31,343 nt of DNA from a virus (IMGVR_UViG_2526164609_000021), one strand, 5' to 3'. Counted from the stretch's first letter, positions 30,852-31,343 are shown. Translations and numbers: made by a program. The notes: generated from the sequence alone by a model not told the origin.

Positions 30852-31202
30852 CTGTACTCCAATGACTAGTCTAAAAACTAGTATTAAGACTATCACTTAT
30901 TTAAGTGATACTGGTTGTCTGGAGATTCAGGGGGCCAGTCTACCCGTGGCATGAACTGCCAACTTCACACAGAAGAAACAATCAGATGAGTTTGCCCTTA
31001 CCTCAGAATTAACGAGCAGAATTGCCGGAGTAACAAAAAAGCGATAGATTACGCGCGGGTGCCTTTCGGCTGATGGTCGGAGGGAATACCTGAAGGCCAG
31101 ATGTGGAAAGGCCCCGGAAAACATTTTTGTTTAACCGAGGCCCTAACCGTCTACCCTAAGCAAGTGATAGGTTAGCGCCTCCCCGAAAAAGGAGCAAGCG
31201 CT

Positions 31203-31343
31203 ATGTCGCAAAAATCGCTTACGGCCATCACGTTCTGCGTGACGGCAATCCTCATCATCTGGATGCTGCACGGTTCGCTGTGCGAAATACGGATGAGCTT
31301 CTGGGGAGCGGAGTTTGCGGCGTTCTTACAGTGTAAGCAGTAA
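31203..31343 (+). CDS. Hok/Gef-family type I toxin (46 aa)
   Basis: Hand translation (below the ORF-track length cutoff): MSQKSLTAITFCVTAILIIWMLHGSLCEIRMSFWGAEFAAFLQCKQ; hydrophobic helix plus the SLCE(I/L)R and E(F/L)AAFL(A/Q)C motifs of Hok proteins; preceded by GGAG; stop TAA is the last codon of the window. Confidence 0.7.
   Translation: MSQKSLTAITFCVTAILIIWMLHGSLCEIRMSFWGAEFAAFLQCKQ

Follow-up and report, generated by a model that had tools for sequence, protein, structure and literature searches.

A probable hok/sok-type toxin-antitoxin module at the right end of a P88-like prophage remnant beside ihfA

A small hok-like open reading frame closes the right end of the viral contig IMGVR_UViG_2526164609_000021, shortly downstream of an IS2 element, and the question it raises is whether the gene is a silenced or decayed relic or the toxin gene of a working type I toxin-antitoxin module. 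The complete stretch of 31,343 nt that was analyzed is referred to here as the window, and its features are collected in Table 1. The analysis computed the ORF, its family match, its identity to catalogued loci, the geometry of the IS2 insertion, RNA folds, and covariation, and on this basis the locus is very probably an intact hok/sok-type module that belongs to the cargo of a P88-like (Xuanwuvirus) prophage by ihfA, where it follows ogr and precedes the right attachment site. The locus is already known in the sense that it is annotated in RefSeq, its peptide has been catalogued and tested for toxicity, and its design is that of known hok/sok systems, so that it has little weight as a discovery.

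Table 1. Coordinates of features in the window (1 = first base; strand given relative to the sequence as deposited).
Feature	Coordinates	Strand	Details
IS1 transposase fragment	1..504	-	Left window edge
IpaH-type effector gene	1071..2822	+	583 aa; LRR_TTSS and NEL E3-ligase domains
Lambda-like tail genes J, H, V, K, L	4817..17692		About 90% identical to siphovirus-type coliphages
AT-rich cargo gene	26264..29280	+	34% GC; between gpD and ogr
ogr/Delta-like zinc-finger gene, 5' part	29416..29611	+	Pfam Ogr_Delta, 52.7 bits
Ogr::IS2 fusion ORF	29416..29652		78 aa; created by the insertion
Target-site duplication, left copy	29607-29611		CCCGT, 5 bp
IS2, in ogr	29612..30942	-	1,331 bp; ends TGGATTTGCCCC... 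and ...GGCCAGTCTA
Target-site duplication, right copy	30943-30947		CCCGT, 5 bp
ogr 3' remnant	30943..31012
Predicted hok promoter, -35	31022-31027	+	TTGCCG; 17-nt spacer to -10
Predicted hok promoter, -10	31045-31050	+	TAGATT
Predicted hok mRNA 5' end and tac	31057..31071	+	GGGUGCCUUUCGGCU; Rfam RF01794 position 1 aligns at 31057
Leader ORF, probably a truncated mok	31101..31175	+	24 codons, MWKGPGKHFCLTEALTVYPKQVIG; TAG stop 31173-31175
Predicted Sok RNA	31103..31161	-	About 59 nt; single-stranded 5' tail plus hairpin GGGCCUCGG...CCGGGGCCU; putative ends
ucb (upstream complementary box)	31106..31115	+	GAAAGGCCCC
GAGGC box	31137..31141	+	At the position of the R1 mok Shine-Dalgarno sequence
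Sok-target stretch	31152..31168	+	Paired with the 3' UTR in the full-length fold (second long-range helix)
Predicted Sok promoter, -10	31174-31169	-	TAACCT; 17-nt spacer to -35
Predicted Sok promoter, -35	31197-31192	-	TTGCTC
dcb / anti-SD	31175-31182		dcb GCCUC 31177-31181; anti-SD CUCC 31179-31182
hok Shine-Dalgarno sequence	31190..31194	+	AGGAG, 8 nt before ATG
hok coding sequence	31203..31343	+	46-aa toxin, MSQKSLTAITFCVTAILIIWMLHGSLCEIRMSFWGAEFAAFLQCKQ

The toxin peptide and its place in the Hok family

The hok stop codon forms the final three bases of the window. The encoded peptide matched the Pfam family HOK_GEF (PF01848) with 29.9 bits (E 4.1e-07) against a gathering threshold of 22, residues 7-44 aligning to profile positions 5-42 of 42, and it contains both the LCEIR and EFAAFLQC motifs. 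These results bear out the initial annotation, which had placed a hok/gef-family toxin ORF of 46 aa at the window edge, and an alignment with K-12 Hok peptides showed shared conserved residues. In the alignment with HokA, HokB, HokC, and HokE of K-12, residues M1, C12, T14, L26, E28, and E37 were invariant, and C27 was common to the peptide and HokA/C/E but not HokB. A survey of 1,264 Hok peptides identified M1, C16, T18, L30, C31, E32, and E41 as logo positions conserved in more than 80% of the sequences, and all of these residues are present here as M1, C12, T14, L26, C27, E28, and E37. Kyte-Doolittle means over 15 residues ranged between 1.8 and 2.55 for segments that begin at residues 4-13, as would be expected of a membrane helix at the N-terminus.

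The peptide is identical to the RefSeq entry WP_000078916.1 ("Hok/Gef family protein") and to homolog 72_1621, cloned as pAZ3::72_1621 (Escalera-Maurer et al., bioRxiv 10.1101/2025.08.07.668861). Homolog 72_1621 belongs to cluster 72 of the Hok clusters built at 60% identity, a cluster classed as high-abundance, and it was one of 45 Hok homologs tested for toxicity; three of these (19_179, 60_1482, and 69_1540) lacked toxicity, and 72_1621 is not among them (10.1101/2025.08.07.668861). Going by the literature on this identical peptide, the product of the window's gene would be toxic. The published assay expressed the coding sequence from an arabinose-inducible promoter with a constant Shine-Dalgarno (SD) sequence (10.1101/2025.08.07.668861), so that native translation of hok falls outside its scope. 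For the coding sequence, this assay essentially amounts to the inducible-expression check suggested in the initial annotation. There is no difference from 72_1621 at the protein level, and the preprint covered the Hok coding sequence only, without annotation of mok, Sok, or mRNA structure (10.1101/2025.08.07.668861).

Assignment to a named subfamily gave a different picture from the Pfam match, as the peptide scored 34 bits against a cut-off of 89 for the NCBIfam HokA equivalog (NF007290) and 21.6 bits against 73 for the NCBIfam Hok subfamily (NF007279). HokA is nevertheless the closest K-12 peptide (20/46 residues identical, 43%), and its equivalog was the best NCBIfam match, though far below the cut-off. 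The peptide is therefore not HokA and forms a separate cluster within the Hok/Gef family. The shortness of the ORF (46 aa only), these scores below the NCBIfam cut-offs, and an Rfam leader match below gathering (see below) could be taken as signs of a chance ORF or of a decayed remnant unrelated to Hok, but such an origin has a negligible probability given a Pfam score above gathering, the presence of every family-conserved residue, a complete leader and 3' UTR that show covariation, and a peptide identical to a catalogued and tested homolog. The ORF is a member of the Hok/Gef family at the Pfam level, belonging to cluster 72 of the preprint, and not a chance ORF.

Leader, antisense RNA, and predicted folds of the transcript

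Upstream of the toxin gene, the full Rfam model RF01794 aligned at 31057..31216 on the plus strand with 46 bits (E 2.9e-09), below its gathering threshold of 59. The same model scored 118, 110, and 84 bits on the hok-sense leaders of K-12 hokC, hokB, and hokE, respectively, ending at their start codons, so that it is effectively a model of the hok leader whose position 1 corresponds to a predicted mRNA 5' end at 31057. On this sequence comparison, the region is treated as a putative divergent leader and not as a curated member of RF01794. Its organization resembles that of hok/sok/mok from plasmid R1, with a leader of about 150 nt, a tac at the 5' end, a ucb, a GAGG box, a dcb, a 3' hairpin, a 3' fbi about 65 nt past the stop codon, and a predicted antisense gene with a promoter that extends across the hok SD. 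The two systems differ in that R1 Hok has 52 aa compared to 46 aa here, that the carrier is a plasmid in one case and a prophage in the other, and that R1 mok starts after the GAGG box whereas the leader ORF of the window starts at +45, inside the tac stem-loop. The predicted SD of 72_1621 has been listed as GGAGC (10.1101/2025.08.07.668861).

The predicted hok promoter matches 8 of 12 consensus positions, and most variants carry a TTG-type -35 and a TAGATT, TAGAAT, or TAAATT -10 at the same place despite unrelated upstream contexts. Homology between such unrelated insertion contexts extended from near the promoter to just past fbi in the 15 variants aligned. The predicted Sok promoter is weak (6/12 consensus positions); its -10, which reads AGGTTA on the plus strand, was invariant in the 15 variants and its -35 varied (TTGCTC, TTGCCT, TTGACT, or TTTACT). 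A strict sigma-70 scan of the locus called neither promoter, so that both assignments are based on position and conservation; the hok promoter may be active, and an antisense RNA may be made from the Sok promoter and act on the leader. The predicted Sok RNA folds with -24.5 kcal/mol (z -3.5), and its ends precede the hok ATG by about 42 and 100 nt, much like those annotated for sokE (44 and 103 nt) and sokC (49 and 107 nt). The target of the Sok 5' tail is the most variable part of the leader in the variant alignment.

The window lacks the hok 3' UTR, as fbi, the partner of the second long-range helix, and the terminator all lie past its edge. Genomes with the identical junction were traced via the Ogr::IS2 fusion peptide, which is unique to this insertion. 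CP026807.1 aligned with the final 1,928 nt of the window with zero mismatches, and between +1 and the end of the terminator its hok unit has exactly the sequence of an IS-free Escherichia coli locus (L001), with ihfA next; S. boydii Sb227 (CP000036.1) carries the same fusion. The 3' UTR of L001 consists of a hairpin, then AAGGCACCC about 65 nt past the stop codon, and then an intrinsic terminator, and in both L001 and CP026807.1 AAGGCACCC is the exact complement of the 5' sequence GGGUGCCUU at 31057. Dozens of IMG/VR prophage contigs (e.g., L020, L022, and L026) end exactly at the hok stop codon, so that the window edge represents an artefact of boundary calling and not a biological truncation. 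Prophage callers that cut at gene ends drop the hok 3' UTR, and a locus of this kind may wrongly look incomplete as a result. The initial annotation had considered the antisense control region impossible to judge from the window. This holds for the 3' UTR, which is cut off, but not for the predicted Sok gene and its promoter, which lie intact inside the window, and the search for regulatory elements near hok that it had recommended recovered the leader, the predicted Sok, and tac/ucb within the window and fbi beyond the edge. Just past the window (L001 6618..6700, minus strand), between the prophage end and ihfA, a match to the Rfam sRNA STnc540, cut at its 5' end, scored below threshold (35.4 vs. 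38 bits).

Folding of the full-length 355-nt RNA without constraints gave a minimum free energy (MFE) of -160.7 kcal/mol (z -7.4). In this predicted structure, all 15 nucleotides of the 5' terminus (tac) are paired with the fbi region, and three further pairings are present: GAGG box/ucb, Sok target/3' UTR, and hok SD/anti-SD. Once the last 38 nt are removed, the unconstrained MFE structure has tac paired with ucb, GAGGC with dcb, and the hok SD unpaired; thus, the predicted folds reproduce the switch from tac/fbi to tac/ucb described for plasmid R1.

Across the 15 variants, the full-length structure was 93.9% paired compared to 38-45% in slid controls, a fraction inflated relative to these controls because one of the aligned sequences had supplied the scored structure. 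Changes on both sides of a pair were found for 21 pairs compared to 4-7 in the slid controls, including six pairs in the helix between the Sok target and the 3' UTR (helix 5, 90.9% paired) and three in the 3' hairpin. The tac/fbi helix was 95% paired over the 15 variants, and one of its pairs had changes on both sides. The tac/ucb helix (98.3% paired) and the GAGGC/dcb helix (96.7% paired, with an invariant core) were both nearly invariant and are therefore compatible with the model without being supported by covariation. The viral matches were 80/80 identical in protein, and the divergence in the alignment came mostly from copies in E. albertii, S. diarizonae, C. braakii, and Stx phages.

A mechanism for the module can be proposed by analogy with plasmid R1 and is backed by the fold predictions; the transcript ends, promoter activity, and biological role in it are putative, and 3' processing, Sok action, and the membrane effect of Hok are taken from the family. 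A weak constitutive promoter would yield a full-length hok mRNA that is stable and about 350 nt long. In this form, tac would be locked to fbi, the Sok target to the 3' UTR, and the hok SD to the anti-SD, so that the locked mRNA would be neither translated nor bound by Sok. Slow trimming from the 3' end would remove fbi, upon which tac would pair with ucb and the GAGGC box with dcb, freeing the hok SD. As long as Sok is supplied, this short and unstable antisense RNA would pair with the leader and lead to decay of the activated mRNA, the Sok duplex being cut by RNase III in the R1 paradigm; when the supply ends, the 46-aa Hok would be made and would enter the inner membrane, and the cell would be killed or arrested. 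The IS2 element breaks ogr only and does not touch the hok module. A module acting in this manner may stabilize the prophage remnant in Shigella.

A mok-like leader ORF that ends before hok

The mok-like leader ORF, probably a truncated mok, is the one real deviation from the R1 design. In the window's leader, no start codon was found after the GAGG box, the position of the R1 mok start, and a GTG at 31165 considered as a mok start was rejected since it opens an ORF of only three codons. The leader ORF starts instead at an ATG at +45 (31101) preceded by GAAGG, a start present in 28 of 30 distinct units, and it ends in a TAG that adjoins the anti-SD on the 5' side and is separated from the hok ATG by 27 nt. 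The leader ORF varied between the 30 units. An R1-type mok frame of 61-79 codons that overlaps hok was present in six units, while six others, among them the window's allele, follow the hok frame to the TAG at 31173-31175. The stop is located 42-43 nt before hok in 12 units and 48-78 nt before it in a further four. A single unit from C. braakii has a GTG start at +46 and an ORF that ends on the hok start codon, and one from S. diarizonae is without a start near +45.

In plasmid R1, premature mok stops upstream of hok and mutations of the mok start codon abolish toxicity, so that either the coupling is dispensable at the present locus or many alleles including the window's are attenuated. According to the second option, the allele would be structurally intact but translationally attenuated ("disarmed"), the ancestral long mok having been cut by a frame change and stops so that ribosomes would fail to reach the hok start, with little or no Hok made natively even without Sok. 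The distribution of leader types fits such a loss, as the overlapping R1-frame ORF is kept in only 6/30 distinct alleles and the leader stops 27 nt (window) or 42-78 nt (others) upstream of hok, the same class of change that causes loss of function in R1; in addition, the inducible coding sequence with a constant SD used in the preprint assay does not report on native translation. However, the stop codon borders the anti-SD on its 5' side, so that a ribosome terminating there could still melt the SD hairpin, and the truncated RNA, folded without constraints, already has an unpaired hok SD with no need for leader translation. Furthermore, the alleles share a conserved RNA architecture, with compensatory changes, and a conserved Hok peptide, and alleles with a truncated mok are the majority and include those of phages isolated as such. 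Attenuation of the allele is the main alternative, though less likely than not.

An intact module remains the preferred reading, and for such a module the fold of the truncated RNA suggests that mok coupling may be dispensable at this locus. Extending this to the whole of cluster 72, it can be put forward tentatively, as a conjecture more doubtful than not, that most alleles, the window's among them, have lost R1-type mok coupling or keep it in reduced form and that refolding directly starts Hok translation, making this a mok-independent variant of hok/sok. In such a variant, 3' trimming would allow the GAGGC box to capture the dcb/anti-SD and thereby free the hok SD. The variable and mostly truncated leader ORF in an abundant cluster constitutes a natural test of the general need for mok coupling in the hok family.

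IS2, the carrier prophage, and related loci

The IS2 element interrupts ogr, a gene that is intact with 86 aa in L001, and 1,323 of its 1,331 bases match a copy in E. coli STEC384 annotated as "IS3-like element IS2 family transposase". After removal of IS2 and one CCCGT copy, the resulting empty site of 628 nt differed from L001 by one mismatch, located in ogr. The element precedes the hok -35 by 79 nt, the predicted start of the hok mRNA by 114 nt, and the hok ATG by 260 nt, and position 30948, where the initial annotation had set the start of the feature, is the first base past the right CCCGT duplication.

That annotation had pointed to IS silencing of chromosomal hok loci in E. coli and to IS2 at the place expected for mok/sok; on such a reading, the locus would be a chromosomal hok silenced by the adjacent IS2, which would replace or disrupt the mok/sok region in the style of K-12 hokA, hokC, and hokE. 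These three K-12 genes do adjoin IS elements, and IS2 does lie 260 nt upstream of the hok ATG, where it would stop read-through transcription from ogr into hok. However, the K-12 elements are inside the transcription unit and at most 32 nt from the hok ORF: IS186 follows the stop codons of hokC and hokE at 19 and 18 nt, respectively, and IS150 adjoins the mokA pseudogene, 32 nt ahead of the start codon of hokA. Here, the conserved hok module starts near 31022, IS2 ends at 30942 with a clean 5-bp duplication in ogr, and no IS was found within the hok transcription unit from the promoter to fbi. As IS2 is outside this unit, the analogy with the IS-silenced K-12 loci fails. Comparison of 30948..31343 with the IS-free locus revealed only one differing base, which is in ogr, and an independent IS2 insertion in STEC384, 9 bp away, also leaves the hok unit intact. 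The statement that IS2 lies upstream of hok is thus correct, but the element does not occupy the place expected for mok/sok, since the leader and Sok region (31022..31202) is downstream of it, and silencing by IS2 is considered very improbable. The window's IS2 in the neighboring ogr is specific to the Shigella-type genomes.

The STEC384 insertion (L097 1749..3079) is 9 bp further along and flanked by the duplication TGAAC, with hok intact; the 3' end of ogr has therefore been struck by IS2 at least twice independently and in the same orientation (CCCGT here and TGAAC in STEC384). Further insertions of the IS3 family were observed in the same ogr interval of other genomes.

Matches to 400 nt starting at 30944 were found in 1,545 of 5,426 complete E. 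coli genomes, in which the hok ORF is annotated as "Hok/Gef family protein" and adjoins the ogr/Delta zinc-finger gene. The closest genomes share the gene order tail sheath, gpD, cargo gene, ogr, and hok, followed by the host genes ihfA-pheT-pheS. The locus was also found in Shigella, in P88-like phages (Xuanwuvirus, Peduoviridae) such as P88, Chuche, and P884B11 with 95-99% identity, and as a related locus in Stx-converting phages with about 82% identity. P88 matches up to the end of the hok terminator and departs from the sequence there, and K-12 has only the ihfA terminator of about 42 nt in common, which identifies the hok module as phage cargo located about 140 bp inside the right end of the prophage. 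The prophage of the window is a Shigella-type remnant of a P88-like (P2-related) prophage next to ihfA. Near-identical copies of the locus occur in assemblies labeled Planococcaceae, Vagococcus, and Xanthomonas pisi (L009, L010, and L013), where they are on short contigs and most likely represent contamination.

Other parts of the window have their own affinities. The IpaH-type effector gene near the left edge is characteristic of Shigella, in line with the occurrence of the same ogr::IS2 junction in Shigella genomes. The lambda-like tail genes adjoin the P2-like remnant, and the window is a mosaic of two unrelated prophage remnants and not one phage. The AT-rich cargo gene corresponds in E. 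coli to a single ORF of 1,039 aa annotated as "MFS transporter", and searches of the cargo ORFs with Pfam and PADLOC yielded no match. The window's copy is a pseudogene: the first 277 nt (87 codons) are missing, and the reading frame is interrupted by a stop codon at 28175-28177 and shifts near 28480. Other prophages have different genes at this cargo position (DUF2971 or HxsB/HxsD).

A prophage-borne hok/sok module has also been characterized as hokW-sokW in the Stx2 prophage Sp5 and phage 933W (Takada et al., 2021; PMC8621323). HokW has 51 aa and is 28% identical to the window's Hok, and its annotated mokW and sokW at 933W 58460-58734 mark a different locus, which rules out hokW as the relative with about 82% identity in Stx phages. 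Phage 933W contains a second, unannotated hok between lom and the next gene (L096 ~1661..1801; ~45.66-45.80 kb of the record), which encodes 46 aa with 82% nucleotide and 74% amino acid identity to the window's hok and has a full leader and fbi; this gene after lom, and not hokW, is the real counterpart among Stx phages. In phage databases, the P88 homolog is entered as "MokW-like host killing", a label that is misleading for the phage homologs because the characterized hokW is a different and distant locus.
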